Shown: positions 24,001-57,225 of the stretch, piece by piece
Numbering within the stretch: position 1 is the first letter of the stretch
How the letters are laid out: each line of letters starts with the position of its first letter
Assembly: GCF_018977255.1 (NCBI RefSeq)
Contig: NW_024704951.1
Span: 1 to 64,000, forward strand
DNA: 64,000 nt
Direction: 5' to 3'
Source of the DNA: Callorhinchus milii
Lineage: Eukaryota
Made by a program: the position numbers and the translations under genes
The notes under the pieces: model-generated
Told to the model about the DNA's origin: nothing
Database searches by the model: none
What the model saw: only the letters and a program-made list of their open reading frames with translations

Positions 24001-24923
24001 ACAAAGGTTGTCAGTGACATTCATGTCGCGGGCAGGGATATTTACCTGCACGATGATAGACTCGCTCATGCTGTGTGAGCTAAAATGGTTTATGATGATA
24101 GTTTACCAGACCGTAGCGTGGGTAGCAAGCGGGTGCGGAGAACCGAGTGTACACATCAACTTCAGGCATAGCCGCCAGCTCGGACCTTGCTACTTTGTCT
24201 ACCGACCTTAGCTCAAAATAGGGGGAAGACAGAACTTTCTCATGACGTTGCGAAACCCTATGTGAGTTGGATGGAGTGGAGGGCGGATAAACTCGAAGAG
24301 GACGCAGGAGGGCGACCTATATAGTAATCTGAACGACTTACAATTCGGGATATCACGGTAATTCCTACGTATTTGTCGCTGGGAAGCAACACTGCAGGTG
24401 TGCCGTTAAAAGCTCACTAGAAGAGCCCGTATTCATCGTGACGGAAGAAGATTCAGATTCCTAAGCGACAACTCTCTAGCAGGATGGCGGATTCCACACG
24501 GTTGCGATGCGAAATACCTAAGCATCATCTAACACCCCCAGAATCAACAGAGTTAAGTCCGCCGCTGGAAGCTAGAGACCGTAGTTTGGCCCATACAGTT
24601 GGCGCCCGAGGATCCCTTCAGATTTTAAACGCGCTTATAGGGCAGGAACTTGGGACTTCTCAGAGAAATTGTTGGATGCGAGCGCTTGCTATTATACCGA
24701 GATTGCCCTGTCTCTGCCATGTCTTTTCATGCATAGAGTAAACACACCTGCCCCTCACGATTGAAACCTCGCAGATTGGTATCGTGACTTCCACTTAGAG
24801 TCAAGTACCACTTGACCTCGGCGATAGCATACAGATGTACAAAATCAGCATGGAACATAAAAGGTTGACTCCGGGTAATGAGCGTTAGAGTGTCGAGGGA
24901 TATAGTTATCCCCGTGCCCATGC
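1..24923. other. Random-like sequence with no supportable features (probable filler or replaced assembly gap)
   Basis: Near-uniform composition, abundant CpG and TpA, no homopolymer or microsatellite tracts, and only short ORFs (max 189 aa) with no recognisable motifs. It switches abruptly at ~24924 into the middle of a repeat unit. Confidence 0.8.
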
Positions 24924-24964
24924 AATGCACTACAGTACTTGTTTCGATTGTGATGTGAATTTTA

Positions 24965-25030
24965 TATTCTTATTCTTGGTTCTTTCGGTAAAGTCACGTA
25001 GAAGGGAAATAATAAAATAATAATAAAAAA
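24965..25030 (-). mobile_element. Penelope-like terminal fragment (also ~33895, ~42635, ~51275)
   Basis: TTCTTGGTTCTTTCGGTAAAGTCACGTAGAAGGGAAATAATAAAAT, the same motif found in the hammerhead-bearing insertions. Confidence 0.65.
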
Positions 25031-25399
25031 CGATAAATATGCCTCGAAGCCCTATGTTAATCCAAAACTCGAAGCATACAATTTCGGTTGTCTGACTAGA
25101 AAATGAATATTTATGAAAGCTAAATTCAGCTAACAAAGCAAAGGGTGTTGAAAATAATACTGTTTGTATTATGCATAAATTAATGTTCAAACGAAACTTA
25201 GAGGTGTGAAGCCAGGCTTAAGTATTGAATATCGCACTTTTAGCTTTCGCTCAGCAATTTCCAAGAAGGTAATTTATTTTCTGTCGATCGAGTACAGAAG
25301 AGGAGTACGGATTTTTAGCGGAAACTCGATTTCTGCATTTTTATATAATTAATGCCTATAGTATCATAAAGAGGCTTGGGGCTTTTGGTTGTTTGTTTC

Positions 25400-25883
25400 G
25401 GGTCCAGTTCCACTTGTTGGAGACTCAGTGGAACGTAGACCCTAGATGTAGACGAAGGTTTCTTAAGGTTGAACAACAACGCCGGTTCCTCTGGGGGACC
25501 CGGCTTATATTCTCTGCGGTTTGGCTGGCTCCCTCCCTTGGCCACGACCACTTTCCAGAATCCTCGAGCAGGATCTGGACCTCGACCACGTGACCACCCC
25601 TAGCCCCCACTTGGGGCCCTTCGTAGACTTAACTGGTCACGTGTCCTCTCGGGTCAACCAGAGTGCCATGGCCTTTAGTAACCTCATTCCTACGGCCGTC
25701 ACTCCCACACCCTATCCTGTAGGGCCAGCACTGCATGCCAAGCGTGGTGCCATCCTGCGCTATCAATCAGCGCTCTAGGGCTGGTACGACACCCACCATA
25801 GTGGTATCCGCGATGTCGTTACACCGCACGCCGTGCCTCTCGAGGGCCAGCACGACACAGTGACATCCCGCGATGTCACTAGA
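25400..25883 (-). mobile_element. Truncated solo LTR (copies in units 2-4)
   Basis: Homologous to the right-hand ~470 bp of the complete LTR at 59614-60250; ends in GTCACTAGA (from TCACTACA). Confidence 0.7.
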
Positions 25884-25925
25884 TCTGTAAGAGTTTATCT
25901 GTGGGGAGCGGTGGCGCAGTTATTA

Positions 25926-26221
25926 CACTGTGTAACAAAAAAACATTTTTGTTCCTGGGTAGTGTTATTTCCTCATTGCCTATTCCTCAAAAGTACAGAT
26001 TATTCCCCACAAACTTTGCTTTTTTGATCAGGACAGTGATATTTTGAAATTTACCTATTTTCAATGAGAAAACGGGCTAATTTGTGTCTTTTCGTTCACA
26101 TAAAGTCCTGGTCACAAAAGCAAAGTTTGTGGGGAATAATAGCGATTTTGTATACTTTTTAGGCATACGCAATTAAAAAATAACACTTTGTACACAGGAA
26201 CAAAAATTGTGTTACATAGTA
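25926..26221. mobile_element. ~300-bp palindromic MITE, TA-flanked on the left (copies in all five units)
   Basis: CACTGTGTAACA...TTTTTGTTCCTG pairs with CAGGAACAAAAATTGTGTTACATAGT. Internal arms TATTCCCCACAAACTTTGCTTTT / AAAAGCAAAGTTTGTGGGGAATA also pair. It appears to interrupt a tRNA-SINE head (GTGGGGAGCGGTGGCGCAG at ~25901). Confidence 0.7.
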
Positions 26222-26968
26222 TTATTACTGTATTATGAATTCAATAATTTGAGTTTGATTATCTCCGACAACAAACGTGATTGATAAGTGAAAACTTAAC
26301 TTCTTGTGGGTCTCGGCTATGTTGATTGATCTTCAATTAATTACTTGGTGAAGTGAGAGAAGCATTCATATTGAGCAGATGAAGGTGGCCAGGCATGGTT
26401 CTGGACACACCACCACCTTTTTACCATGCCAGTGTGTAACAGTGTCAAGTTTGTATTTGCAGTAAAGTATATTAACTCTATTGAACACGGAGGTTAAATC
26501 AAAACAATAGTTTATTTTAGTTTTCCTTTGGAACTTTTTACGAAAATGAACACGACACATATGCAGCTGAAGTTAGTTCTGTTCATCCCAGCATTCAAGG
26601 AAATCTGAGCCTGGCTTCACACCTCTAAGTTTCGTTTGAACATTAATTTATGCATAATACAAACAGTATTATTTTCAACACCCTTTGCTTTGTTAGCTGA
26701 ATTTAGCTTTCATAAATATTCATTTTCTAGTCAGACAATCGAAATTGTATGCTTCGAGTTTTGGGTTAACATAGGGCTTCGAGGCATATTTATGACTATT
26801 TGCCCTCATTGTTTGTCATAACAGCCCGTGTGATGAATTTGGGAATATTAATAAGTATAGACGTGTAAGTCATATGTGCCTCGATACTTACGTAGATGGT
26901 GTGGATATTCTCTTTTTTCTGTCTGCAGCTGACGCTTCCTCTGACGCTTCCTCTGCAGAATTGGTCTG

Positions 26969-28158
26969 ATGGAGCAAAGACCCTCAGCGCAGTTTGGTAC
27001 AAAAATGCAACAATGCGACCAGTGTGCATACAGCACGGATCGTCCTGGACATTTGACACAGCACCAGAGAACTCACACAGGAGAGAAACCCTTAAAGTGC
27101 ACTTTGTGTGAAAAGTCATTTGCATGGCCATCAGTTCTTCAGAGCCACCAGAGAACACACACGGGAGAGAAACCCTTCAGGTGCACTCTGTGCGGGAAGG
27201 CGTTTGCCGAGTCATCACATCTTAAACTACACCAGAGAACACACACGGGAGAGAAACCCTTCAAGTGCAGTGTGTGTGGGAAGGCATTTTCAGATTCATC
27301 TGCTCTTAAAAAACACCGGAGAACACACACAGGAGAGAAACCCTTCAAGTGCAGTCTGTGCGGGAAGGTGTTTTCACAGTCATCTGGTCTTGTATTGCAC
27401 CAGAGAACACACACGGGAGAGAAACCCTTCAAGTGCAGTCTGTGCGGGAAGGCGTTTGCAGTGTCATCACATCTTAAACAACACCAGATAACACACACAA
27501 AAGAGAAACCTTTCAAGTGCACTGTCTGTGAGAAGTCATTTGCATGGTCATCAGGTCTTAATTGCCACCAGAGAACACACACGGGAGAGAAACCCTTCAA
27601 GTGCACTCTGTGCGGGAAGGCGTTTGCTGAGTCATCGCATCTTAAACTACATCAGAGAACACACACGGGAGAGAAACCCTTCAGGTGCACTGTGTGCGGG
27701 AAAGCATTTGCAGGTTTATCAAATCTTAACAGACACCAGAGGACATACAATCATCAGAAGATCCCCAAGGAGTGGAGTCTGAAATCGGCTTGTGAAAGTC
27801 AAAGTGCTGCAATGAGCCCATCCCTCATGAAACCAGAACTAAATCCCAGCATGGACACTTTTAAAGGTATCAAGGTGAAATGTGAAGAGGCGAAGGTGAA
27901 ATGTGAAGAAGTGATGAGCGAAGAAGTGAAGGTGAAATGTGAAAAAGTGATGGTGAAGAGCGAAAAAGTGACAGTAAACTGTGAAGATGAAGATTCAACT
28001 CCAAAATCGGACCTTCACATCGATGGGGCAACGTGAAGCAGGAGGAGAATTCTGACTGTGAGTCAGAGCGAGGCAACTCCCAACAGTTTGTGGAAGTGGA
28101 GGTGTGGGTGGACTTCTTAGACAATGCAAAGTCAAATGGAGACCCGGTAGATGTGTAA
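26969..28158 (+). CDS. C2H2 zinc-finger protein, copy 1 (8 canonical fingers plus 1 atypical HQRTYNH finger) with a C-terminal VKCE-repeat/acidic tail
   Basis: ORF 26969-28036 has TGEKP-linked CxxC...HxxxH repeats. One missing G at ~28025-28029 (GATGGGGCAAC vs GATGGGGGCAAC in copy 2) shifts the frame; restoring it extends the protein to ...NGDPVDV-TAA at 28158. Polypyrimidine-CAG acceptors end at 26928 and 26958. Confidence 0.9.
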
Positions 28159-28685
28159 GCTTAATGAAGCTCCAATAGATTCACCTTTGTCACAGGCCTT
28201 TAATGAAAATGAACGTGAAGTCGAACACTCAATTCCTGGGTTCAGCCTGCAGAATAAGAGCGGCGAGTATTTGTTGACCTGTGGGTTGGGTAGATGAATA
28301 ATCAGGATCAAGAGACAATATGCTCCCAAGTATTCCACTGTTATATTTATATTTGCATTGATATGGTGCTTGCTTTATTGCCTTAGCAACTCAGTTGTTT
28401 CATGTCTCATCACAGACACTCGAAGAGCACCTTCAAGTGGCAGCTGCCTCTGTGTGATAAGGTGACCCTGCTCGAGCCTGCATGTGGGCATGAGTCTGTC
28501 AGTAGGGAGTGATGATCGATGTGTAATCTCCATTATGTAATTTCTGGATAATGTTTGGAATTATCCAAATATTGACCATGACCCCAACATGCAATGACCT
28601 ATGCGTTTTGAATGACAATAGTATGTTTTACATCCACTGTTAAGCAGACGGTGCATATTTGGTTTAATGTTACTGGAGTAGCCAG

Positions 28686-28753
28686 GGGTGCCTGTCGGAT
28701 TTGAGCCTTGAACCTCTGTAATAAATAGAGAATGTGCTACCACTGGGCTTCCC
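28686..28753 (-). mobile_element. Degenerate tRNA-derived SINE head in the ZNF 3' flank
   Basis: The minus strand reads AGCCCAGTGGTAGCAC (A-box-like) ... GGCTCAAATCC (B-box-like). It also supplies a plus-strand AATAAA at 28720-28725. Confidence 0.45.
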
Positions 28754-29111
28754 TTAATCTGAGTGTAGGCATGACAGCCTGAATGTTTCTAACCGGAGCA
28801 GATGTTCAATTTAGAGGGGTCCACGTTTTACATGGCTACAGAAGGGAGGGCATTACTGTGGCCGAGAAGAACCGAAGCTTCATGCGGAGTGACAGACCAG
28901 GTAGCTTCCACACAGCATTGCGCAGCCGATGAAATGATAATGCCGCCCGACTGATTCGGACCACCCACACAGTGTACACACACCATGTCTACACAGAGCG
29001 TACACAGTGTACCCGCACAGTATACAAACAGCCTGTACACACACAGTAACAAAACAACCGCCATTTGTCACTAAGTGTTAATGAGCCCGACACATTATCA
29101 TAATTTATTCA

Positions 29112-29295
29112 TATTGGTTCTTTCGGTAAAGTCACGTAGAATGGAAATAATAAAATAAAAATAAAACTATAAAATAATTCTCACGTTTCGGCCACAACGC
29201 AAGCAGCCGTCACCAGGTGAAGACCAGGTCTGTCGATTTTACCGAAAGAACCAAGAATATGAATCCCTGCAGTCACGAAAGCTTTAAATCGAAAT
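29112..29295. mobile_element. Fold-back Penelope-like insertion with a 12-bp TSD and a degenerate hammerhead (copies ~37865, ~46522, ~55196)
   Basis: TTGGTTCTTTCGGTAAA / TTTACCGAAAGAACCAA inverted ends and a CCTGCAGTCACGAAAGCTTTAAA tail. ATAATTTATTCA is duplicated at 29100-29111 and 29296-29307. Confidence 0.75.
29180..29221 (-). ncRNA. Degenerate minimal hammerhead ribozyme (probably inactive)
   Basis: Minus strand TTCAC-CTGGTGA-C-GGCTGC-TTGCGTT-GTGGCC-GAAACGT-GAG: core A6 is changed to G and 3 nt are lost at the cleavage site. The intact form AAACGTCGTGAG is seen at ~29674. Confidence 0.65.
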
Positions 29296-29591
29296 ATAAT
29301 TTATTCACCATTGTAACCTCATTTGCCAGAAGAAAAAATATGATAATTGTTTTTTTACCCCTTTTAGCTGTCAACAAAACTGATCTGGTCCAACACCATG
29401 TGAGACTATGCTCTTAAGGAAAGCTGTCTTGGGTGTGGACCAATCAACTTCAAGGACAGTGCATACATTATCAGAGTTATATTTTTTGTTTGTATTACGA
29501 CTGCAGGTATTGTGGTCTATGCAAACATGACTCCTTGTAAAAAAGGTGTCAGTTTTGTTGCCAGATAAAATGGTAAAACAAATGATAATTT

Positions 29592-29762
29592 TTCGATTTA
29601 AAGCTTTCGTGACTGCAGGGATTCATCTTCTTGGTTCTTTCGGTAAAGTCACGTAGAAGGGAAGTAATAAAATAAACGTCGTGAGAATTATTTTATTATG
29701 TTTTATTTTTATTATTTTATTACTTCCCTTCTACGTGACTTTACCGAAAGAACCAAGAAGAT
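29592..29762. mobile_element. Second fold-back Penelope-like insertion, opposite orientation, 12-bp TSD (copies ~38342, ~47000, ~55674)
   Basis: ~50-bp perfect arms ATCTTCTTGGTTCTTTCGGTAAAGTCACGTAGAAGGGAAGTAATAAAATAA and reverse complement. TSD AAATTATAATTT is perfect in units 2 and 4 and has 1 mismatch in unit 1. Confidence 0.78.
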
Positions 29763-29799
29763 AAATTATAATTTATTCAAGTTACACTGCTGCTCGATA

Positions 29800-29975
29800 G
29801 GGGAGGGGATTGTGTGGACCCCGCAAGTGACGTCATGTCACCTCCTGCCGCATGACGTCACGGCATACCAGGAAGCTTCTGCTCCGCGCACGTTCGCGCA
29901 CGGAGATCCGTGGTGAGAAGATTACATCGTGGTGGTTGTGGTTATTGTTGTGGTTGTTGTTGTGAACCTAGGTAG
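29800..29975 (+). promoter_or_regulatory. Candidate CpG-rich promoter and short first exon (copies at ~38560, ~47210, ~55880)
   Basis: Two perfect CRE palindromes TGACGTCA (29828-29835, 29853-29860), an ETS-like CAGGAAG and CGCGCAC twice. Possible donors follow: TG/GTGAGA (29913) and AG/GTAGAG (29972). Confidence 0.5.
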
Positions 29976-30540
29976 AGCCTCGCTCCTTCTCCCTCTCGTA
30001 TGGATATCAATTGAGTAGCAGCGAGTATGGAATCGATGTCCAGGTTGGAACATTACAACGCAGGGCCTAGCCATGCGGGGCCTTGCCTCCTGCCCTCGCC
30101 TGATTGCATTTGCTTTAATTCTCAGCTTAAGTTTAATTTGTCTTCACCTGGCTCACTACTTTGAAACTTTTTTTTACTTTAAATATTTCTACGTTTTTTT
30201 ATTTTACCAGGCATAGCCCACTTGAGCTACACCGCTCGTTTTCAGAAGCGACCTGCCCACAACACAGTGGGCTTATCAACGCGTGGAAATGTTTATCGGT
30301 CAAATACTCTAAACGCGTGGTGATGTTGACTCTAAATGTGCAGGGGAAAACCGCAGGATCCGGAGGAAAATCCACGCGACCACGGAGAGAGAGGGACACG
30401 CAAACTCCAAATATACAGCCATAATACAGGTTTGTTTGTGTGAGATCGCGTAAATAAATCAATGTGTCGTTAACCCCGCCACCACCCGACACAGCCAATT
30501 AGCAAGGGTTGTCACGTAAACAGAACGTGGACCATGTGTC

Positions 30541-30627
30541 ACTAGTACAGCACTAGTGTGTAGTGTAGTGTATAGTAGTGTATAGTGTAGTGTATGGTAG
30601 TGTATAGTGTAGTGTACTAGTACAGCA
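30541..30627 (+). repeat. (TAGTG/TAGTGTA)n microsatellite bracketed by ACTAGTACAGCA direct repeats
   Basis: Seen directly. Copies at ~39292 and ~47930, and a longer one at 56619-56737. Confidence 0.85.
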
Positions 30628-30689
30628 TATCGGTATGTTGGAGAGCCAAGCCACAACATTTACAATCTGAGTACGACGTTTTGACAGTA

Positions 30690-31254
30690 CAGTGGTACCC
30701 CGGGGATCGAACTTAATTCGTTCCAGAAGGCCATTCGAACACCGATTTGTTGGAACACCGAATTAATTTCCCCCATAAGAGTTAATGTTAAGGACATGAA
30801 TTGGTTCCAGACACAATACATCTCTCATACAGCATTTTTACACGAAGTTTACAGTAATTACATGAATAAAAAAATACAAAAACAAACACAAATGAAATAA
30901 ATGAACATTGAACTTCACTACCACTAACCTTCTTAGGAGACATTGTGTATGGATAAACACCAAAAAACACTAAAATAAAGGAAATTAACTAAAAAGTTAA
31001 GGAACGATGTTTTGCCGGTCTGCACTGGGTGAGAGCTACGCGTTAACTAAGCCTCTCACACGGTAAAACATTTGTCTGGGTAAGCGTCATGCATGCTGGC
31101 CATACACGTCTCAGCCAAACAGGTTTTTTCAAGTCGTGATTGCCCGTTCGACCTCCGAATTTCGTTCGGTTTCCGGGGCAAAAAATGGTCGGAAATATCG
31201 TTCTAACACCGATTTGTTCGAGTTCTGGTGCGTTCCATCTCCGAGATTCTTCTG
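30690..31254. mobile_element. Tc1/mariner (Tigger/pogo-like) MITE with TA TSD (copies 39441-39998, 48079-48640)
   Basis: TA-CAGTGGTACCCCGGGGATCGAAC...GTTCCATCTCCGAGATTCTTCTG-TA has imperfect 23-bp TIRs. The empty site ACAG-TA-ATT is visible in unit 4 at ~56793-56801. Confidence 0.85.
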
Positions 31255-31413
31255 TAATTTCAACAAACTTCATCAGGCGACAGCCAAATGTTGTGGCTTG
31301 GCTCTGTGGGAATATAAATTGGCTCACTGGGTTCATAGCGCAGCACGCTAACTGTTGCACCACCGCTCCCCACTCACGCAAAAACTTCATCGGAAGTATA
31401 GTATTTTTCCAGT

Positions 31414-33768
31414 AATGACTAAGTTACCCGGCTTAGCTCAGGTCTCAGTAATTAAACATTAAGAGTAATGTCTTGCCATTCTGACTTTATTACAATTATT
31501 GAATTTTGCCAATGAAGTCTGTAAATGTGTGTATATTGTCTCGGTTTTTTGGTTGTGTTATACAATATCAGGGCTTGTTTGTTTCATAATGAGGACAACT
31601 TCTAAATCAGTGGCCCTTGGAGAGCTTCATGATAGACAATGTTGGATGTTTTGCCATCTGGTGGGTTTCATCAAATGAAGCTTCCATTTTGGTATACATG
31701 TCGACAGAAAATTTGTGGAAGAGCTCTTTGCATCTCAAGAACAGATTGAAGTTGCCGTTCGCACCATGATCCTGAAGGCAAAGCAGTCCATGGCGGAAAT
31801 CTTCTTTTGTGTTGGCAAGCCTGTTGCTAGGTCCGTTTGGTGAAGTCGGAAAAATTGTAGCCATCATCACCTTGCCAGAAAATCAGTAGACATTGCAGAG
31901 CATCATGGGATCGGTGTGTTTCATTTCTGTGTAGGGTGTTGTTCCTCAGTTGCAAGACGATGCCTCGAGTGCCATGTTCAGCAGTCAGAATGACAGCGAC
32001 TTCAGATGTGAGTGCATTTAAGCGGCACTCATGTTGACCATGTGGAATTTAGTCTGCATGAATGACAACATTGTAACTCTGAAGTCATTTTTTACATGGC
32101 ACACTTGAAACTGAATGTAAGAGTTTTCCTTATGGAGCATGTCTTGCAACAGCAATAGGACTGGCATCTTGGTGTTTATGACATTTTTGCAATGCTGGTG
32201 AGCCTGTCTGGTATTGTCAGATATGCAAGTAGATCTCTGGTAATGTAGGTAGGTTATTAGGTAGTGGCAGCAGACTGACAATGCGAGTATGTACCTGGCC
32301 CTGCACTTAAATGTGGGCATGTAGCCAGATGTTACGATGAGTTGGTCGGTGCCAAAACATGATCATTTGGAACCATGAGTTATATTTTAAATTGTTGTTT
32401 TGGAAATGGCTTTTCAGGTATCAATACATGAATAGGCTCGGTATGGTCATTAATTGTAGGAAGCTGAACCATGGTACTGTTGCAGAATAGCCTTGGAGGG
32501 TCTCCTTTCAATGTCATTGTATGGCAGTAGCTGCAAGAAGTAGACATGGAACCAATAGCAACTAATGGATCGGTGTAAATGAAGTGAGAAATTTATGGAA
32601 AAAATACTTATCCTTTTGGCTGCAGGGTAGGCACCTGGTTGCAGCCATTGTAGTACTGTTTGCAAGCTGAGGTGCTTGTTGGCGGACTGGAGTCTATTAG
32701 CTGTTGCAACAGCCAATTGTGCTGTGTTACTTTCTGTGGAGCTTATTGCTTTTGATGAGATGCATTCACTGTAGGTGCAGGCATAGCAGCACTGGCAGCA
32801 TGCCGTCTTGTTTGGTGTTCAGCAGTGTCCTCAATAGGTGCAGCCATCGCAGCACTTATACAAATAGCATCAATTATTGTAATCCGCTTTGGTGAAGAGA
32901 AGCGCATGTTTTCCGCAAGGAACATTATAGGTGGAGGTAAAAGTTAGTAAGCAGAAAAAAGCATGAATAGTGAGTGTGTGAGTAAATGCTGTGGTGAGAT
33001 TATTTATTAAATTATAGTTGAATGTGGAATCGTTGTAAGAATATGAAGACATAGCTGCAACGGAATAAAGTATGAGGATGTAAGTTGTTGGAGGGAGTAA
33101 TTGTTTGTAGTGCTTGAAGTGGGTATGAATAGTATGTGTGTGGTGGTGCGTATACACAAAATAAGTTGAATGTGTGTGTGCGTGCTTTTTATTCCTTACC
33201 AGGCGATCTAGACTTGATTTATTTTGTCGTAGCTGTTGCATAGCGTCTATATTGTGTAGGAGGAGGTCGGTAGTCCTGGCACATAGATGTAGATATTTTA
33301 GAATCGTACATGTCTTTTTAAAATAAATATTGCAGTGTGTGTTAGAGGTGAGCCGTGCATGTGCATAGAGGACAGTAAGGAGCTGGAAGTGGATGAATTT
33401 GGCAGCAAAAGCGCAGGTCTGATAATAGGGAAGGATAACATGGTAAATATGACAACAAATATTGCAGTGCAGACACTTATGTTATGATGAGTGCTTGGAA
33501 TTGTAGTATATGAAATGTCATAATGTGTTTGCGTGTGTGGCTAACCCATGGTGATAGAAATGGAGGGGGGGGGGAGGAATGGTGGGGGGTTGGAGTGTGC
33601 AGGTGTCTGAGGTTTGAAGTTGAGCAGGTAAGCTAAAAATAGTGTGACAAACACACTAACTCACCTGTGAGTACTCATTGAATGTTTACGCTGTGTAGGT
33701 TTAATGGTGTTGGCACAATTTGGTTCACAAAAAATTTACATGCGCAAAGTCTGCTTTATTTAATTAGC
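31414..33768 (-). mobile_element. Internally deleted Helitron (Rep-helicase relic), unit 1
   Basis: Minus-strand peptides match RepHel N-terminal motifs: HFQNNNLKYNSWFQM, MPTFK, LQDMLHKENSYI, VVIHAD*IPHGQHECRLNALTSEVAVI...ETHRSHDALQCLLIFWQGDDGY, KKISAMD, ELFHKFSVDMYTKME. These are fused to the helicase C-terminus PDGKTSNIVYHEALQ. A decayed subterminal hairpin lies at ~31425-31443. Confidence 0.85.
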
Positions 33769-35888
33769 TTCATACTATTTTTTCGTCTTCAATTTTTTTT
33801 TGTTTACGGTTTCTGAATGTTTATTTCAATTGTTTAGTTTTTAGTTGATTTGGAATGCACTACAGTACTTGTTTCGATTGTGATGTGAATTTTATATTCT
33901 TATTCTTGGTTCTTTCGGTAAAGTCACGTAGAAGGGAAATAATAAAATAATAATAAAAAACGATAAATATGCCTCGAAGCCCTATGTTAACCCAAAACTC
34001 GAAGCATACAATTTCGGTTGTCTGATTAGAAAATGAATATTTATGAAAGCTAAATTCAGCTAACAAAGCAAAGGGTGTTGAAAATAATACTGTTTGTATT
34101 ATGCATAAATTAATGTTCAAACGAAACTTAGAGGTGTGAAGCCAGGCTTAAGTATTGAATATCGCACTTTTAGCTTTCGCTCAGCAATTTCCAAGAACGT
34201 AACCTCCGATATTCAAGGGGGTAATTTATTTTCTGTCGATCGAGTACAGAAGAGGAGTACGGATTTTTAGCGGAAACTCGATTTCTGCATTTTTTATATA
34301 ATTAATGCCTATAGTATCATAAAGAGGCTTGGGGCTTTTGGTTGTTTGTTTCGGGTCCAGTTCCACTTGTTGGAGACTCAGTGGAACGTAGACCCTAGAT
34401 GTAGACGAAGGTTTCTTAAGGTTGAACAACAACGCCGGTTCCTCTGGGGGACCCGGCTTATATTCTCTGCGGTTTGGCTGGCTCCCTCCCTTGGCCACGA
34501 CCACTTTCCAGAATCCTCGAGCAGGATCTGGACCCGACCACGGACCACCCCTAGCCCCCACTTGGGGCCCCTTCGTAGACTTAACTGGTCACGTGTCCTC
34601 TCGGGTCAACCAGAGTGCCATGGCCTTTAGTAACCTCATTCCTACGGCCGTCACTCCCACACCCTATCCTGTAGGGCCAGCACTGCATGCCAAGCGTGGT
34701 GCCATCCTGCGCTATCAATCAGCGCTCTAGGGCTGGTACGACACCCACCATAGTGGTATCCGCGATGTCGTTACACCGCACGCCGTGCCTCTCGAGGGCC
34801 AGCACGACACAGTGACATCCCGCGATGTCACTAGATCTGTAAGAGTTTATCTGTGGGGAGCGGTGGCGCAGTTATTACACTGTGTAACAAAAAACATTTT
34901 TGTTCCTGGGTAGTGTTATTTCCTCATTGCCTATTCCTCAAAAGTACAGATTATTCCCCACAACTTTGCTTTTTTGATCAGGACAATGAGAAACGGGCTA
35001 ATTTGTGTCTTTTCGTTCACATAAAGTCCTGGTCACAAAAGCAAAGTTTGTGGGGAATAATAGCGATTTTGTATACTTTTTAGGCATAAGCAATTAAAAA
35101 ATAACACTTTGTACACAGGAACAAAAATTGTGTTACATAGTATTATTACTGTATTATGAATTCAATAATTTGAGTTTGATTATCTCCGACAACAAACGTG
35201 ATTGATAAGTGAAAACTTAACTTCTTGTGGGTCTCGGCTATGTTGATTGATCTTCAATTAATTACTTGGTGAAGTGAGAGAAGCATTCATATTGAGCAGA
35301 TGAAGGTGGCCAGGCATGGTTCTGGACACACCACCACTTTTTACCATGCCAGTGTGTAACAGTGTCAAGTTTGTATTTGCAGTAAAGTATATTAACTCTA
35401 TTGAACACGGAGGTTAAATCAAAACAATAGTTTATTTTTGTTTTTCTTTGGAACTTTTTACGAAAATGAACACGACACATATGCAGCTGAAGTTAGATCT
35501 GTTCATCCCAGCATTCAAGAAAATCTGAGCCTGGCTTCACACCTCTAAGTTTCGTTTGAACATTAATTTATGCATAATACAAACAGTATTATTTTCAACA
35601 CCCTTTGCTTTGTTAGCTGAATTTAGCTTTCATAAATATTCATTTTCTAGTCAGACAACCGAAATTGTATGCTTCGAGTTTTGGGTTAACATAGGGCTTC
35701 GAGGCATATTTATGACTATTTGCCCTCATTGTTTGTCATAACAGCCCGTGTGATGAATTTGGGAATATTAATAAGTGTAGACGTGTAAGTCATATGTGCC
35801 TCGATACTTACGTAGATGGTGTGGATATTCTCTTTTTTCTGTCTGCAGCTGACGTTTCCTCTGACGCTTCCTCTGCAGAATTGGTCTG

Positions 35889-36909
35889 ATGGAGCAAAGG
35901 CACTCAGCGCAGTTTGGTACAAAAATGCAACAATGCGACCAGTGTGCATACAGCACGGATCGTCCTGGACATTTCACACAGCACCAGAGAACTCACACAG
36001 GAGAGAAACCCTTCAGGTGCACTCTGTGCGGGAAGGCGTTTGCCGAGTCATCACATCTTAAACTACACCAGAGAACACACACGGGAGAGAAACCCTTCAA
36101 GTGCAGTGTGTGTGGGAAGGCATTTTCAAATTCATCTGCTCTTAAAAACACCGGAGAACACACACAGGAGAGAAACCCTTCAAGTGCAGTCTGTGCGGGA
36201 AGGTGTTTTCACAGTCATCTGGTCTTGTATTGCACCAGAGAACACACACGGGAGAGAAACCCTTCAAGTGCAGTCTGTGCGGGAAGGCGTTTGCAGTGTC
36301 ATCACATCTTAAACAACACCAGATAACACACACAAAAGAGAAACCTTTCAAGTGCACTGTCTGTGAGAAGTCATTTGCATGGTCATCAGGTCTTAATTGC
36401 CACCAGAGAACACACCGGGAGAGAAACCCTTCAGGTGCACTGTGTGCGGGAAAGCATTTGCAGGTTTATCAAATCTTAACAGACACCAGAGGACATACAA
36501 TCATCAGAAGATCCCCAAGGAGTGGAGTCTGAAATCGGCTTGTGAAAGTCAAAGTGCTGCAATGAGCCCATCCCTCATGAAACCAGAACTAAATCCCAGC
36601 ATGGACACTTTTAAAGGTATCAAGGTGAAATGTGAAGAGGCGAAGGTGAAATGTGAAGAAGTGATGAGCGAAGAAGTGAAGGTGAAATGTGAAAAAGTGA
36701 TGGTGAAGAGCGAAAAAGTGACAGTAAACTGTGAAGATGAAGATTCAACTCCAAAATCGGACCTTCACATCGATGGGGGCAACGTGAAGCAGGAGGAGAA
36801 TTCTGACTGTGAGTCAGAGCGAGGCACCTCCCAACAGTTTGTGGAAGTGGAGGTGTGGGTGGACTTCTTAGACAATGCAAAGTCAAATGGAGACCCGGTA
36901 GATGTGTAA
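35889..36909 (+). CDS. C2H2 zinc-finger protein, copy 2 (7 fingers; two 1-bp frameshifts)
   Basis: ORFs 35889-36326, 36203-36532 and 36397-36909 tile one protein. The shifts lie in an A-run (~36145) and an AC-run (~36415), which is typical of read error. Confidence 0.8.
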
Positions 36910-39900
36910 GCTTAATGAAGCTCCAATAGATTCACCTTTGTCACAGGCCTTTAATGAAAATGAACGTGAAGTCGAACACTCAATTCCTGGGTTCAGCCTG
37001 CAGAATAAGAGCGGCGAGTATTTGTTGACCTGTGGGTTGGGTAGATGAATAATCAGGATCAAGAGACAATATGCTCCCAAGTATTCCACTGTTATATTTA
37101 TATTTGCATTGATATGGTGCTTGCTTTATTGCCTTAGCAACTCAGTTGTTTCATGTCTCATCACAGACACTCGAAGAGCACCTTCAAGTGGCAGCTGCCT
37201 CTGTGTGATAAGGTGACCCTGCTTGAGCCTGCATGTGGGCATGAGTCTGTCAGTAGGGAGTGATGATCGATGTGTAATCTCCATTATGTAATTTCTGGAT
37301 AATGTTTGGAATTATCCAAATATTGACCATGACCCCAACATGCAATGACCTATGCGTTTTGAATGACAATAGTATGTTTTACATCCACTGTTAAGCAGAC
37401 GGTGCATATTTGGTTTAATGTTACTGGAGTAGCCAGGGGTGCCTGTCGGATTTGAGCCTTGAACCTCTGTAATAAATAGAGAATGTGCTACCACTGGGCT
37501 TCCCTTAATCTGAGTGTAGGCATGACAGCCTGAATGTTTCTAACCGGAGCAGATGTTCAATTTAGAGGGGTCCACGTTTTACATGGCTACAGAAGGGAGG
37601 GCATTACTGTGGCCGAGAAGAACCGAAGCTTCATGCCGAGTGACAGACCAGGTAGCTTCCACACAGCATTGCGCAGCCGATGAAATGATAATGCCGCCCG
37701 ACTGAATTCGGACCACCCACACAGTGTACACACACCATGTCTACACAGAGCGTACACAGTGTACCCGCACAGTATACAAACAGCCTGTACACACACAGTA
37801 ACAAAAACAACCGCCATTTGTCACTAAGTGTTAATGAGCCCGGCACATTATCATAATTTATTCATATTGGTTCTTTCGGTAAAGTCACGTAGAATGGAAA
37901 TAATAAATAAAAATAAAACTATAAAATAATTCTCACGTTTCGGCCACAACGCAAGCAGCCGTCACCAGGTGAAGACCAGGTCTGTCGATTTTACCGAAAG
38001 AACCAAGAATATGAAGCCCTGCAGTCACGAAAGCTTTAAATCGAAATATAATTTATTCACCATTGTAACCTCATTTGCCCAGAGGAAAAAATATGATAAT
38101 TTTTTTTTACCCCTTTTAGCTGTCAACAAAACTGATCTGGTCCAACACCATGTGAGACTAGGCTCTAAGGAAAGCTGTCTTGGGTGTGGACCAATCAACT
38201 TCAAGGACAGTGCATACATTATCAGAGTTATATTTTTCGTTTGTATTACGACTGCAGGTATTGTGGTCTATGCAAACATGACTCCTTGTAAAAAAGGTGT
38301 CAGTTTTGTTGCCAGATAAAATGGTAAAACAAATTATAATTTTTCGATTTAAAGCTTTCGTGACTGCAGGGATTCATCTTCTTGGTTCTTTCGGTAAAGT
38401 CACGTAGAAGGGAAGTAATAAAATAAACGTCGTGAGATAATTATCTTATTTTATTATGTTTTATTTTTATTATTTTATTACTTCCCTTCTACGTGACTTT
38501 ACCGAAAGAACCAAGAAGATAAATTATAATTTATTCAAGTTACACTGCTGCTCGATAGGGGAGGGGATTGTGTGGACCCCGCAAGTGACGTCATGTCACC
38601 TGCCGCATGACGTCACGGCATACCAGGAAGCTTCTGCTCCGCGCACGTTCGCGCACGGAAGATCCGTGGTGAGAAGATTACATCGTGGTGGTTGTGGTTA
38701 TTGTTGTGGTTGTTGTTGTGAACCTAGGTAGAGCCTCGCTCCTTCTCCTCTCGTATGGATATCAATTGAGTAGCAGCGAGTATGGAATCGATGTCCAGGT
38801 TGGAACATTACAAACGCAGGGCCTAGCCATGCGGGGCCTTGCCTCCTGCCCTCGCCTGATTGCATTTGCTTTAATTCTCAGCTTAAGTTTAATTTGTCTT
38901 CACCTGGCTCACTACTTTGAAACTTTTTTTTACTTTAAATATTTCTACGTTTTTTATTTTACCAGGCATAGCCACTTGAGCTACACCGCTCGTTTTCAGA
39001 AGCGACCTGCCCACCAGCAGTGGGCTTATCAACGCGTGGAAATGTTTATCGGTCAAATACTCTAAACGCGTGGTGATGTTGACTCTAAATGTGCAGGGGA
39101 AAACCGCAGGATCCGGAGGAAAATCCACGCGACCACGGAGAGAGAGGGACACGCAAACTCCAAATATACAGCCATAATACAGGTTTGTTTGTGTGAGATC
39201 GCGTAAATAAATCAATGTGTCGTTAACCCCGCCACCACCGGACAGCCAATTAGCAAGGGTTGTCACGTAAACAGAACGTGGACCATGTGTCACTAGTACA
39301 GCACTAGTGTGTAGTGTAGTGTATAGTAGTGTATAGTGTAGTGTATGGTAGTGTATAGTGTAGTGTACTAGTACAGCATATCGGTATGTTGGAGAGCCAA
39401 GCCACAACATTTACAATCTGAGTACGACGTTTTGACAGTACAGTGGTACCCCGGGGATCGAACTTAATTCGTTCCAGAAGGCCATTCGAACACCGATTTG
39501 TTGGAACACCGAATTAATTTCCCCCATAAGAGTTAATGTTAAGGACATGAATTGGTTCCAGACACAATACATCTCTCATACAGCATTTTTACACGAAGTT
39601 TACAGTAATTACATGAATAAAAAATACAAAAAAAACAACAAATGAAATAAATGAACATTGAACTTACTACCACTAACCTTCTTAGGAGACATTGTGTATG
39701 GATAAACACCAAAAACACTAAAATAAAGGAAATTAACTAAAAAGTTAAGGAACGATGTTTTGCCGGTCTGCACTGGGTGAGAGCTACGCGTTAACTAAGC
39801 TCTCACACGGTAAAACATTTGTCTGGGTAAGCGTCATGCATGCTGGCCATACACGTCTCAGCCAAACAGGTTTTTTCAAGTCGTGATTGCCCGTTCGACC

Positions 39901-40158
39901 TCCGAATTTCGTTCGGTTTCCGGGCAAAAAATGGTCGGAAATATGTTCTACACCGATTTGTTCGAGTTCTGGTGCGTTCCATCTCCGAGATTCTTCTGTA
40001 ATTTCAACAAACTTCATCAGGCGACAGCCAAATGTTGTGGCTTGGCTCTGTGGGAATATAAATTGGCTCACTGGGTTCATAGCGCAGCACGCTAACTGTT
40101 GCACCACCGCTCCCCACTCACGCAAAAACTTCATCGGAAGTATAGTATTTTTTCCAGT

Positions 40159-42507
40159 AATGACTAAGTTACCCGGCTTAGCTCAGGTCTCAGTAATTAA
40201 ACATTAAGAGTAATGTCTTGCCATTCTGACTTTATTACAATTATTGAATTTTGCCAATGAAGTCTGTAATGTGTGTATATTGTCTCGGTTTTTTGGTTGT
40301 GTTATACAATATCAGGGCTTGTTTTGTTTCATAATGAGGACAACTTCTAAATCGTGGCCCTTGGAGAGCTTCATGATAGACAATGTTGGATGTTTTTGCC
40401 ATCTGGTGGGTTTCATCAAATGAAGCTTCCATTTTGGTATACATGTCGACAGAAAATTTGTGGAAGAGCTCTTTGCATCTCAAGAACAGATTGAAGTTGC
40501 CGTTCGCCCATGATCCTGAAGGCAAAGCAGTCCATGGCGGAAATCTTCTTTTGTGTTGGCAAGCCTGTTGCTAGGTCCGTTTGGGAAGTCGGAAAAATTG
40601 TAGCCATCATCACCTTGCCAGAAAATCAGTAGACATTGCAGAGCATCATGGGATCGGTGTGTTTCATTTCTGTGTAGGGTGTTGTTCCTCAGTTGCAAGA
40701 CGATGCCTCGAGTGCCATGTTCAGCAGTCAGAATGACAGCGACTTCAGATGTGAGTGCATTTAAGCGGCACTCATGTTGACCATGTGGATTTAGTCTGCA
40801 TGAATGACAACATTGTAACTCTGAAGTCATTTTTTACATGGCACACTTGAAACTGAATGTAAGAGTTTTCCTTATGGAGCATGTCTTGCAACAGCAATAG
40901 GACTGGCATCTTGGTGTTTATGACATTTTTGCAATGCTGGTGAGCCTGTCTGGTATTGTCAGATATGCAAGTAGATCTCTGGTAATGTAGGTAGGTTATT
41001 AGGTAGTGGCAGCAGACTGCAATGCGAGTATGTACCTGGCCTGCACTTAAATGTGGGCATGTAGCCAGATGTTACGATGAGTTGGTCGGTGCCAAAACAT
41101 GATCATTTGGAACCATGAGTTATATTTTAAATTGTTGTTTTGGAAATGGCTTTTCAGGTATCAATACATGAATAGGCTCGGTATGGTCATTAATTGTAGG
41201 AAGCTGAACCATGGTACTGTTGCAGAATAGCCTTGGAGGGTCTCCTTTCAATGTCATTGTATGGCAGTAGCTGCAAGAAGTAGACATGGAACCAATAGCA
41301 ACTAATGGATCGGTGTAAATGAAGTGAGAAATTTATGGAAAAAATACTTATCCTTTTGGCTGCAGGGTAGGCACCTGGTTGCAGCCATTGTAGTACTGTT
41401 TGCAAGCTGAGGTGCTTGTTGGCGGACTGGAGTCTATTAGCTGTTGCAACAGCCAATTGTGCTGTGTTACTTTCTGTGGAGCTTATTGCTTTTGATGAGA
41501 TGCATTCACTGTAGGTGCAGCAGCATAGCAGCACTGGCAGCATGCCGTCTTGTTTTGGTGTTCAGCAGTGTCCTCAATAGGTGCAGCCATCGCAGCACTT
41601 ATACAAATAGCATCAATTATTGTAATCCGCTTTGGTGAAGAGAAGCGCATGTTTTCCGCAAGGAACATTATAGGTGGAGGTAAAAGTTAGTAAGCAGAAA
41701 AAAGCATGAATAGTGAGTGTGTGAGTAAATGCTGTGGTGAGATTATTTATTAAATTATAGTGAATGTGGAATCGTTGTAAGAATATGAAGACATAGCTGC
41801 AACGGAATAAGTATGAGGATGTAAGTTGTTGGAGGGAGTAATTGTTTGTAGTGCTTGAAGTGGGTATGAATAGTAATGTGTGTGGTGGTGCGTATACACA
41901 AAAATAAGTTGAATGTGTGTGTGCGTGCTTTTTATTCCTTACCAGGCGATCTAGACTTGATTTATTTTGTCGTAGCTGTTGCATAGCGTCTATATTGTGT
42001 AGGAGGAGGTCGGTAGTCCTGGCACATAGATGTAGATATTTTAGAATCGTACATGTCTTTTTAAAATAAATATTGCAGTGTGTGTTAGAGGTGAGCCGTG
42101 CATGTGCATAGAGGACAGTAAGGAGCTGGAAGTGGATGAATTTGGCAGCAAAAGCGCAGGTCTGATAATAGGGAAGGATAACATGTAAATATGACAACAA
42201 ATATTGCAGTGCAGACACTTATGTTATGATGAGTGCTTGGAATTGTAGTATATGAAATGTCATAATGTGTTTGCGTGTGTGGCTAACCCATGGTGATAGA
42301 AATGGAGGGGGGGGGGGAGGAATGGTGGGGGGTTGGAGTTGCAGGTGTCTGAGGTTTGAAGTTGAGCAGGTAAGCTAAAAATAGTGTGACAACACACTAA
42401 CTCACCTGTGAGTACTCATTGAATGTTTACGCTGTGTAGGTTTAATGGTGTTGGCACATTTGGTTCACAAAAAATTTACATGCGCAAGTCTGCTTTATTT
42501 AATTAGC
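40159..42507 (-). mobile_element. Helitron relic, unit 2
   Basis: Copy of 31414-33768; ORFs 40241-40525 and 40480-40830 show the motifs. Confidence 0.85.
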
Positions 42508-44606
42508 TTCATACTATTTTCGTTTCAATTTTTTTTTGTTTACGGTTTCTGAATGTTTATTTCAATTGTTTAGTTTTTAGTTGATTTGGAATGCACTACA
42601 GTACTTTGTTTCGATTGTGATGTGAATTTTATATTCTTATTCTTGGTTCTTTCGGTAAAGTCACGTTAGAAGGGAAATAATAAAATAATAATAAAAAACG
42701 ATAAATATGCCTCGAAGCCCTATGTTAACCCAAAACTCGAAGCCATACAATTTCGGTTGTCTGATTAGAAAATGAATATTTATGAAAGCTAAATTCAGCT
42801 AACAAAGCAAGGTGTTGAAAATAATACTGTTTGTATTATGCATAAATTAATGTTCAAACGAAACTTAGAGGTGTGAAGCCAGGCTTAAGTATTGTATCGC
42901 ACTTTTAGCTTTCGCTCAGCAATTTCCAAGAAGGTAATTTATTTTCTGTCGATCGAGTACAGAAGAGGAGTACGGATTTTTGCGGAAACTCGATTTCTGC
43001 ATTTTTATATAATTAATGCCTATAGTATCATAAAGAGGCTTGGGGCTTTTGGTTGTTTGTTTCGGGTCCAGTTCCACTTGTTGGAGACTCAGTGGAACGT
43101 AGACCCTAGATGTAGACGAAGGTTTCTTAAGGTTGAAAACAACTCCGGTTCCTCTGGGGGACCCGGCTTATATTCTCTGCGGTTTGGCTGGCTCCCTCCC
43201 TTGGCCACGACCACTTTCCAGAATCCTCGAGCAGGATCTGGACCCGACCACACGGACCACCCCTAGCCCCCACTTGGGGCCCCTTCGTAGACTTAACTGG
43301 TCACGTGTCCTCTCGGGTCAACCAGAGTGGCCATGGCCTTTAGTAACCTCATTCCTACGGCCAGTCACTACACACACCCTATCCTGTAGGGCAGCACTGC
43401 ATGCCAAGCGTGGTGCCATCCTGCGCTATCAATCAGCGCTCTAGGGCTGGTAACGACACCCACCATAGTGGTATCCGCGATGTCGTTACACCGCACGCCG
43501 TGCCTCTCGAGGGCCAGCACGACACAGTGACATCCCGCGATGTCACTAGATCTGTAAGAGTTTATCGTGTGGGGAGCGGTGGCGCAGTTATTACAACTGT
43601 GTAACAAAAAACATTTTTGTTCCTGGGTAGTGTTATTTCCTCATTGCCTATTCCTCAAAAGTACAGATTATTCCCCACAACTTTGCCTTTTTTGATCAGG
43701 ACAATATGAAAAACCTATCGCGGCTAATTTGTGTCTTTCGTTCAACATAAGAGTCCTGGTCACAAAAGCAAAGTTTGTGGGGAATAATAGCGATTTTGTA
43801 TACTTTTTAGGCATAAGCAATTAAAAAATAACACTTTGTACACAGGAAAAAAATTGTGTTACATAGTATTATTACTGTATTATGAATTCAATAATTTGAG
43901 TTTGATTATCTCCGACAACAAACGTGATTGATAAGTGAAAACTTAACTTCTTGTGGGTCTCGGCTATGTTGATTGATCTTCAATTAATTACTTGTGAAGT
44001 GAGAGAAGCATTCATATTGAGCAGATGAAGGTGGCCAGGCATGGTTCTGGACACACCACCACCTTTTTACCATGCCAGTGTGTATACAGTGTCAAGTTTG
44101 TATTTGCAGTAAAGTATATTAACATATTGAACACGGAGGTTAATCATAGTTTATTTTTGTTTTTCTTTGGAACTTTTTAACGAAAATGAACACGCACATA
44201 TGCAGCTGAAGTTAGATCTGTTCATCCCAGCATTCAAGAAAATCTGAGCCTGGCTTCACACCTCTAAGTTTCGTTTGAACATTAATTTATGCATAATACA
44301 AACAGTATATTTTCAACACCACTTTGCTTTGTTAGCTGAATTTAGCTTTCATAAATATTCATTTTCTAGTCAGACAACCGAATTGTATGCTTCGAGTTTG
44401 GGTTAACATAGGGCTTCGAGGCATATTTATGACTATTTGCCCTCATTGTTTGTCATAACAGCCCGTGTGATGAACTTTGGGAATATTAATAAGTGTAGAC
44501 GTGTAAGTCATATGTGCCTCGATACTTAGCGTAGATGGTGTGGATATTCTCTTTTTTCTGTCTGCAGCTGACGTTTCCTCTGACGCTTCTCTGCAGAATT
44601 GGTCTG

Positions 44607-45589
44607 ATGGAGCAAAGGCACTCAGCGAGTTTGGTACAAAAATGCAACAATGCGACCAGTGTGCATACAGCACGGATCGTCCTGGACATTTACACAAGCA
44701 CCAGAGAACTCACACAGGAGAGAAACCCTTCAAGTGCATGTGTGCGGAAGGCGTTTGCAGTCATCACATCTTTAACTACACACAGAGAACACACGGAGAG
44801 AAACCCTTCAGTGCAGTGTGTGGAAGGCGTTTGCACAATTCACTGCTCTTAAAAACACCAGAGAACACACACAGGAGAGAAACCCTTCAGTGCAGTCTGT
44901 GTGGGAAGGGTTTGCACAGTCATCTTCTTATTCACCAGAGAACACACACGGGAGAGAAACCCTTCAAGTGCAGTCTGTGGGGAAGGCGTTTGCACATTCA
45001 TACATCTTAACAACACCAGAAACACACACAGAGAAACCTTCAAGTGCACTGTCTGTGAGAAGGCATTTGCAGTCATCAGGTCTTAACACCAGAGAACACA
45101 CACGGGAGAGAAACCCTTCAGTTGCACTGTGTGGGAAGGCGTTTGCAGTCATCAATCTTAAAGACACCAGAGGACACACAAGCATCAGAAGATCCCCAAG
45201 AAATGGAGTCTGAAATCGGCTTGTGAAAGTCAAAGTGCTGCAATGAGCCCATCCCTCATGAAACCAGAAGTGAATCCCAGCTTGGACACTTTTAAAGGTA
45301 TCAAGGTGAAATGTGAAGAGGCGAAGGTGAAATGTGAAGAAGTGATGAAGAGCGAAGAAGTGAAGGTGAAATGTGAAGTGATGGTGAAGAGCGAAAAAGT
45401 GACGGTAAACTGTGAAGATGAAGATTCAACTCCAAAATCGTACCTTCACATCGATGGAGGCAACGTGAAGCAGGAGGAGAATTCTGACTGCGAGGCAGAG
45501 CTAGGCAACTCCCAGAGTTTGTGGAAGTGGAGGTGTGGGTGGACTTCTTAGACAATACAAAGTCAAATGGAGACCCGGTAGATGTGTAG
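44607..45589 (+). pseudogene. C2H2 zinc-finger copy 3, heavily frameshifted (pseudogene or poor consensus)
   Basis: ATGGAGCAAAGG start and HTGEKPF remnants in several frames, with many 1-6 bp deletions; the VKCE tail is present (ORF 45243-45551). Confidence 0.75.
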
Positions 45590-48500: not shown

Positions 48501-48799
48501 CAAACAGGTTTTTTCAAGTCGTGATTGCCCGTTCGACCTCCGAATTTCGTTCGGTTTCCGGGGCAAAAAAATGGTCGGAAATATCGTTCTAACACCGATT
48601 TGTTCGAGTTCTGGTGCGTTCCATCTCCGAGATTCTTCTGTAATTTCAACAAACTTCATCAGGCGACAGCCAAATGTTGTGGCTTGGCTCTGTGGGAATA
48701 TAAATTGGCTCACTGGGTTCATAGCGCAGCACGCTAACTGTTGCACCACCGCTCCCCACTCACGCAAAAACTTCATCGGAAGTATAGTATTTTTCCAGT

Positions 48800-53261: not shown

Positions 53262-54243
53262 ATGGAGCAAAGGCACTCAGCGCAGTTTGGTACAAAAATG
53301 CAACAATGCGACCAGTGTGCATACAGCACGGATCGTCCTGGACATTTCACACAGCACCAGAGAACTCACACAGGAGAGAAACCCTTCAGGTGCACTCTGT
53401 GCGGGAAGGCGTTTGCCGAGTCATCACATCTTAAACTACACCAGAGAACACACACGGGAGAGAAACCCTTCAAGTGCAGTGTGTGTGGGAAGGCATTTTC
53501 AAATTCATCTGCTCTTAAAAAACACCGGAGAACACACACAGGAGAGAAACCCTTCAAGTGCAGTCTGTGCGGGAAGGTGTTTTCACAGTCATCTGGTCTT
53601 GTATTGCACCAGAGAACACACACGGGAGAGAAACCCTTCAAGTGCAGTCTGTGCGGGAAGGCGTTTGCAGTGTCATCACATCTTAAACAACACCAGATAA
53701 CACACACAAAAGAGAAACCTTTCAAGTGCACTGTCTGTGAGAAGTCATTTGCATGGTCATCAGGTCTTAATTGCCACCAGAGAACACACACGGGAGAGAA
53801 ACCCTTCAGGTGCACTGTGTGCGGGAAAGCATTTGCAGGTTTATCAAATCTTAACAGACACCAGAGGACATACATCATCAGAAGATCCCCAAGGAGTGGA
53901 GTCTGAAATCGGCTTGTGAAAGTCAAAGTGCTGCAATGAGCCCATCCCTCATGAAACCAGAACTAAATCCCAGCATGGACACTTTTAAAGGTATCAAGGT
54001 GAAATGTGAAGAGGCGAAGGTGAAATGTGAAGTGATGGTGAAGAGCGAAAAAGTGACAGTAAACTGTGAAGATGAAGATTCAACTCCAAAATCGGACCTT
54101 CACATCGATGGGGCAACGTGAAGCAGGAGGAGAATTCTGACTGTGAGTCAGAGCGAGGCACCTCCCAACAGTTTGTGGAAGTGGAGGTGTGGGTGGACTT
54201 CTTAGACAATGCAAAGTCAAATGGAGACCCGGTAGATGTGTAA
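53262..54243 (+). CDS. C2H2 zinc-finger protein, copy 4 (7 fingers; frameshifts near 53874 and 54112; shorter VKCE tract)
   Basis: ORF 53262-53906 holds 7 fingers. ORF 53936-54121 continues the tail, and the homologous stop TAA is at 54241-54243. Confidence 0.82.
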
Positions 54244-56944: not shown

Positions 56945-57225
56945 AATAACTAAGTTAACCGGCTTAGCGCAGGTCTCAGTAATCAAACATGCTGGCTTTA
57001 TTACAATTATTGAATTCTGCCAATGAAGTCTGTAAATGTGTGTATATTGTCACGGTTTTGTGGTTGTGTTATACAATTGCAGGGCTTGTTTGTTTCATAA
57101 TGAGGACAGCTTTTAAATACATTGCCCTTGAAGAGCTTCAGCATAGACAATGTTGGATGTTTTGCCATCTGGTAGTGTTGGCACAATTTGGTTCACATGC
57201 ACAAAGTTTGCTTTATTTATATAGA
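56945..57225 (-). mobile_element. Minimal Helitron relic (ends only), unit 4
   Basis: The 5' terminus reads A|TCTATATAAATAAAGC on the minus strand (TC at 57225). About 2 kb of internal sequence is missing at CCATCTGGT-A-GTGTTGG (~57173). Confidence 0.7.

Follow-up and report, generated by a model that had tools for sequence, protein, structure and literature searches.

The zinc-finger gene that begins at position 26,969 of the window (the whole stretch of 64,000 nucleotides that was analysed) encodes a C-terminal tail rich in psi-K-x-E, the SUMO acceptor consensus, and raises the question of whether this tail serves as an effector in place of KRAB. The answer that we tentatively prefer, with confidence a little short of even, is that the tail is a lamprey-specific, motif-based effector, probably repressive and SUMO-assisted, whose core is a hydrophobic peptide and not the repeat. 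The gene is the first of five copies in a tandem array.

The First Gene Copy and Its Reading Frame

24921..64000, plus strand: five units in tandem, each some 8.7-9 kb long and with one zinc-finger gene
26905..26958, plus strand: pyrimidine tract and two AG splice-acceptor-like sites before the ATG (from the sequence; in all five units)
26969..27751, plus strand: ATG, 15-residue leader and nine C2H2 fingers with TGEKP-type linkers (from the sequence, and from Pfam on the intact paralog P0001)
27752..28158, plus strand: C-terminal tail shared by the family (intact paralogs have about 134 aa), acidic with a net charge of -11 in P0002 and predicted to be disordered
28025..28028, plus strand: run of four G (five in the next copy); the loss of one base shifts the frame, which meets a stop at 28034-28036

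The coding exon of the first copy encodes no N-terminal effector domain, its ATG standing 15 codons before the first finger, and 26905..26958 would, we infer, mark the start of a single coding exon. The open reading frame that holds the fingers extends from stop to stop over 26945-28036 and ends in ...DLHIDGAT. Because the G run is one base short, the VKQE site, a ten-residue peptide and the terminal GDPVDV with its stop lie outside this frame; in the next copy (L002, window 36.5-36.9 kb) five G stand where the first copy has four. The earlier note had read the tail as one joined segment of protein. All the peptides that it quoted are present in the DNA, but they occupy two frames in the first copy, everything from VKQEE onward, GDPVDV included, being out of frame; for the family the joined protein is right, since in 55 of the 80 loci fetched for the analysis a single frame continues after the last finger to the end of the VEVW motif. 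The tail frame is broken in 27 of the 80, and as assembled none of the five genes of the array, the fingers of which start at 27.0, 35.9, 44.7, 53.3 and 61.4 kb, is a single open frame from the ATG to the tail end.

The fourth copy of the array (L013) shows the same loss of a G; it has another variant in common with L002 that is absent from the first copy, which points to repeated loss within the homopolymer or to gene conversion. Comparison of the 27 broken tails with their nearest open paralogs gave 32 single-base deletions, some of these events being alignment artefacts, and 11 of the 32 fall in runs of at least three bases, in which 16% of the bases lie. An extra base at the position of 28025-28028 is found in contigs of four public runs; these contigs, a mixture of paralogs and other species, cover all 30 bins of 27760-28950. 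The stretch is contained in 20 of 24 sequencing-run rows, the RNA status of which is guessed, none being on record as RNA. That the one-base loss is an assembly error is plausible; the first copy could also be a young pseudogene. As assembled, its product would be without the two best-conserved elements of the tail. About 95 nt past the stop (window 28248-28260), a donor-like AG-GTAAG or AG-AGTAAG occurs in many paralogs, where the first copy has AATAAG; an intron in the 3' UTR could expose transcripts to nonsense-mediated decay, and no joint of such an intron was seen in the contigs of the four public runs.

A Lamprey Gene Family without KRAB

In the genome from which the window comes, a DNA search for the tail, in which 40 of 149 candidates were scored, found 41 matches, and a protein search, with 150 of 234 scored, found 165. 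Frame-shifted copies match twice in such searches, and we estimate the number of family loci at about a hundred or more; the 80 that were fetched were taken from the better matches. The 150 matches listed for the protein search, and likewise the 150 listed for one further search, all lie on contigs numbered C106 or higher (range C106-C1745), none of them on multi-megabase scaffolds, and the fetched contigs of the family are 3-157 kb long. Clusters that are difficult to assemble are the probable location of the family.

All 14 database homologs of the tail, among proteins of lengths 299-952 only, come from lampreys (Lethenteron, Lampetra and Petromyzon). A tail profile run against 1.84 billion representatives produced 12 hits, nine of which, with E < 1e-10, are all lamprey proteins, the other three being low-complexity repeats. 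Among 22 homologous proteins from the three lamprey genera the distal psi-K-x-E site was found in 20, the other two ending before it, and the ten-residue peptide in 17, with models that are too short or shifted accounting for the misses; the peptide is kept in homologs that are only 55-64% identical. P0143, the homolog that diverges most, lacks an expanded repeat but contains three psi-K-x-E sites and the peptide FVDVEVWVDY.

The proposal that the tail is an undescribed module is supported in that the tail matched no Pfam family (best E 0.17) and its profile none of the PDB sequences at E up to 10; the ESM Atlas returned no usable hit for the tail and is uninformative. The description of the family as a KRAB-free one held as well, the tail being common to a large family: no KRAB was present in P0001 among the best 25 of 32 Pfam families (the remainder having E > 0.012), and a genome-wide search with PF01352, run without a positive control, found KRAB in none of 14 candidates. 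A conserved upstream coding exon was considered and rejected. The N-termini given in databases fall on leader or repeat sequence, and as these extensions disagree in frame and sequence they do not make up a shared N-terminal domain. Databases already list genes of the family, either under a generic zinc-finger name or as encoding uncharacterized proteins. A literature search of main texts outside subscription journals met no description of the family or of its tail, nor is the family mentioned in the accessible parts of papers on a lamprey genome (10.64898/2025.12.15.694513), cyclostome domain shuffling (PMC11788884) and a lamprey methyltransferase (PMC12803185).

Elements of the Tail

27827..27838, plus strand: MKPE, the proximal psi-K-x-E site (most paralogs have psi-K-Q/K-E)
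27869..27988, plus strand: 21-nt minisatellite encoding V-x-V-K-x-E-E heptads, with four psi-K-x-E sites
28033..28044, plus strand: distal psi-K-x-E site VKQE, out of frame in the first copy
28087..28116, plus strand: ten-residue hydrophobic/acidic peptide, the most constrained element of the tail, out of frame in the first copy
28138..28158, plus strand: GDPVDV and stop, an unconstrained end

The AlphaFold2 model of the tail has a mean pLDDT of 52 and a pTM of 0.14, and its best block (72) is formed by residues 101-110, which are the hydrophobic peptide. Disordered regions are the usual context of SUMO-type short motifs. A coiled coil was rejected, as the hydrophobic residues occupy heptad positions 1 and 3 and no confident helix is predicted. 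In the subfamily of the first copy a 6-nt deletion at 27827-27838 turned M-K-Q-E-P-E into M-K-P-E, with psi-K-x-E kept. The number of heptads differs between paralogs, and the last heptad has N instead of K in this subfamily.

Five psi-K-x-E sites lie in the frame of the first copy (MKPE at 27827, VKCE at 27875, 27896 and 27932, and VKSE at 27953), one fewer than the approximately six of the earlier note, a figure that fits the family, in which the median is 6 and the range 4-8 (52 distinct tails); all open copies (49/49) retain 4-8 sites. Shuffling the in-frame tail of the first copy yielded 0.49 sites on average, and none of 10,000 shuffles reached five. In the family sequences 98 sites were counted in 2,318 tail residues and none in 3,064 residues of the finger arrays, and the inverted motif E/D-x-K-psi is not enriched in the family tails (median p 0.22). 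The shuffle test overstates the enrichment because most of the sites are copies of one 21-nt unit (the repeat length is 54+21n nt in 34 of 53 open-frame copies), and selection is therefore a better test than composition.

Selection on the Tail

Codon models were applied to 76 distinct copies of the tail, chosen without a motif filter, with the 49 open copies as a subset. The omega of the whole tail is 0.77 (p 0.005 against 1), near neutral, the 0.63 of IQ-TREE codon runs without a transition parameter having been discarded; the 0.77 and the following estimates come from one tree, with few events per site and with gene conversion, CpG effects and multiple testing ignored, for loci picked by similarity and with noise added by assembly errors. 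Constraint is concentrated on the ten-residue peptide, where omega is 0.25 against 0.8 for the remaining tail in the 76 copies (p 6e-7) and 0.1 against 0.8 elsewhere in the tail in the 49 open copies (p 1e-7). This peptide is the run that the earlier note had called SIM-like; in the family it is under clear purifying selection, and the first copy has it out of frame. In the distal V-K-Q-E site the K is present in 76 of 76 and the E in 75 of 75 distinct copies.

The glutamate of the psi-K-x-E motifs is also constrained, with an omega of 0.2-0.3 against 0.8 for other glutamates (p 0.007), and of 0.3 against 1.25 for the residue that follows it (p 1e-4). Motif lysines have an omega of 0.6 against 0.7 for other lysines (p 0.81) and as a class are unconstrained, the heptad lysines reaching 0.8-0.9 and the variable x 1.1. 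Taken together, motif K and E differ from x (p 7e-4); their difference from other K and E is borderline (p 0.047 for all copies, 0.089 for the open ones). Of 64 first heptads 12 have lost the K, and N stands in its place in 16 of 71 last heptads, the subfamily of the first copy included, a count that takes in 30 of the 35 irregular repeats; without these 35 the last heptad looks invariant. Retention of K and E across paralogs is seen for the motif E and for the distal K and E and does not extend to the lysines of the repeat (p 0.81), which drift; the earlier note had named a lack of selective retention of K-x-E as refuting its claim, and in part this lack is observed. The pattern of constraint shifts the emphasis from the repeat to the peptide and the distal site.

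The end of the tail after DFL evolves like the rest (omega 0.8). The P of the P-V-D-V end is present in 62 of 72 copies, and in 6 of 76 (L041, L042, L043, L034, L047 and L073) a change of CGA to TGA puts a stop directly after DFL, with the conserved ten-residue peptide as the very C-terminus in these copies. The suggestion of a weakly PxDLS-like end fails, as this end is unconstrained and is lost to early stops in several copies. A CtBP-binding PxDLS was rejected for the further reason that most copies hold only a P-x-D core, with neither L nor S, and P-V-D-V-stop does not fit the CtBP motif PL[DN]Lx as given in the accessible part of 10.1101/2022.08.26.505496.

Possible Function of the Tail

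If the tail is an effector of the kind that we prefer, the diversifying fingers would pick the DNA targets, which by analogy with KRAB-ZFPs and FiNZ-ZNFs may be fast-changing ones such as transposons. The conserved ten-residue peptide, a candidate SIM-like peptide for partner docking (28087..28116), would dock either SUMO itself or a cofactor; SUMO would be attached to the psi-K-x-E sites, chiefly to the invariant V-K-Q-E, with the heptads as redundant extras, and the attached SUMO would recruit silencing complexes. Judged by their sequence, the tail motifs and the peptide are likely to bring in partners that silence genes. The link between the motif and repression is taken from data for human repression domains, where SUMO sites are needed in 149 of the 166 domains with such sites and MGA has an IKEE tile that represses on its own (10.1101/2022.08.26.505496, accessible part). 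SUMO2/3-type genes are present in lamprey. As a predictor psi-K-x-E is weak: it occurs in 12.3% of inactive tiles in the accessible part of the same study and is without enrichment in fly repression domains in that of PMC9890238.

The core of a SIM, which we take to be psi-psi-x-psi or psi-x-psi-psi with an acidic flank, is matched by V-E-V-W and W-V-D-F only when W and F are admitted as psi. A complex predicted for SUMO (P0018, residues 27-111) and the last 41 residues of the tail scored 0.02, in a run without alignments and with its controls not folded, and speaks neither for nor against an interaction. A more far-reaching version of the preferred reading, which we regard as speculative and rather unlikely to hold in full, is that jawless vertebrates own a genome defence like that of the KRAB-ZFPs, made up of at least 100 arms-race ZNFs in which a minisatellite-tuned C-terminal array of SUMO acceptors and an invariant SIM-like peptide would nucleate SUMO-based repressive assemblies, with no KRAB or TRIM28.

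Somewhat less likely still, though it is the strongest of the rival explanations, is that the peptide alone is functional, as a strand with alternating hydrophobic residues to which a cofactor or a further member of the family would bind without any need for SUMO, and that the psi-K-x-E sites are a side effect of the minisatellite, which lies in a charged spacer. The peptide does show much the strongest constraint, the heptad lysines are near neutral, and most of the sites were copied from one unit; the unrelated P0147 also has a repeat rich in VKCE. Against this stand the distal V-K-Q-E, which lies outside the repeat with K and E invariant, the constraint on the motif E and not on neighbouring E or D, and the three sites retained by the repeat-poor P0143. 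The repeat of P0147, a protein of 882 aa, is a long G-V-K-C/Y/S-E-G-G array that begins at residue 434 and forms another tandem psi-K-x-E array.

The disorder of the tail, its net charge of -11 and its C-terminal position would also suit an acidic-aromatic activation domain (F, W, F and L among D/E) whose output is damped by flanking SUMOylation, the proteins being activators or bifunctional, and aromatics among acidic residues are described for activation domains in the accessible part of 10.1101/2022.08.26.505496. We consider this unlikely, as the tail is rich in valine and poor in leucine, the peptide is conserved letter by letter while activation domains have little fixed grammar (same source and part), and the expanded ZNF families with diversifying contacts studied to date are repressors (PMC10547256, accessible part). 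That the tail has little function, and that its copies are alike because they were duplicated recently and converted by one another in a cluster that is decaying, agrees with the overall omega of 0.77, the broken frames in 27 of 80 loci and a 3' flank that by eye is about as similar as the coding tail, but it is very improbable given a constraint that is focused on one peptide and grows stronger without the broken copies (0.25 to 0.1), the retention of this peptide across three genera and in homologs of 55-64% identity, and the fact that many of the breaks are single-base losses, typical of long-read error.

Relation to Other Zinc-Finger Families

The fingers of the family evolve like those of KRAB-ZFPs, with diversifying DNA-contact residues. 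In a codon tree of 220 of the 561 distinct fingers, omega reaches about 4 at helix positions -1, +3 and +6 and 2 at +2 and +5, values that recombination between fingers can inflate; the core F and L have 0.3-0.4, and C and H are invariant through the filter applied to the fingers. The helix positions with the excess are the base-contacting ones.

The likeness to KRAB-ZFPs, which act through the TRIM28/SETDB1 pathway, extends to tandem C2H2 arrays with TGEKP linkers, clustered copies, variable finger number and diversifying contacts. KRAB, however, is an N-terminal, folded domain with an exon of its own, whereas the lamprey tail is C-terminal, encoded in the finger exon, predicted disordered and motif-based; KRAB genes are called sarcopterygian-specific in the accessible part of PMC12803185. 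The FiNZ-ZNFs of cyprinid fish, as described in the accessible part of PMC10547256, are likewise a lineage-specific, KRAB-less and clustered expansion with adaptive evolution, and their accessory sequence is, like the tail, short, conserved, rich in glutamate and unannotated. By that description the two are set apart, FiNZ being a cyprinid-only N-terminal domain of 28 aa in a separate exon and the tail a lamprey-only C-terminal sequence of about 134 aa. A link of FiNZ to TRIM33, suggested as the fish cofactor, is possible according to the accessible part of PMC11603059. The words 'lamprey' and 'SUMO' do not occur in the main text of Wells et al. 2023 (PMC10547256), the supplements with ZNF counts lying outside that scope. 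As far as its sequence tells, the lamprey family resembles KRAB-ZFPs and FiNZ-ZNFs in gene-family evolution and is a member of neither, having no KRAB and no N-terminal accessory exon.

In build the tail resembles SUMO-dependent repression domains such as the IKEE sites of Sp3 and MGA, where psi-K-x-E also belongs to a DNA-binding protein and lies in a part of it that is acidic and disordered (10.1101/2022.08.26.505496, accessible part). The tail differs from them in its 4-8 sites, its 21-nt repeat, its family-wide occurrence and its place beside an invariant hydrophobic peptide, and it is known from sequence alone. The mechanism by which KRAB-less ZNF families silence their targets is left open in the accessible part of PMC10547256, where this is stated for FiNZ. 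With the lamprey family, from jawless animals, the vertebrate cases number three, and its candidate effector is placed and built differently; the pattern of selection narrows the residues of interest down to the ten-residue peptide and one lysine. Should SUMO-dependent repression prove true, ZNF-guided silencing can do without a KRAB/TRIM28 adaptor; otherwise about a hundred transcription factors still carry a conserved peptide motif that is specific to lampreys and has no annotation.

Other Features of the Window

29828..30266, plus strand: stretch resembling a promoter (two TGACGTCA), with leader exons that are probably non-coding, both putatively serving the next copy, to which they belong

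This stretch recurs in four units of the array, and no equivalent for the first gene copy was found within the window. The sequence upstream of the array (1-24920) is statistically random-like, with all 16 dinucleotide ratios between 0.97 and 1.02 and a compression of 0.311 against 0.310 for random sequence; no tandem repeat, self-match or open reading frame above 200 aa was found in it. It is unlike lamprey genomic DNA and is likely an assembly or processing artefact. Within the array, weak matches (E ~0.03) to the N-terminal part of P0011, presumably the end of a LINE reverse transcriptase, were found at 28600-28930 (minus strand) and at 37351-37679, and each unit of the array probably contains a decayed retroelement.
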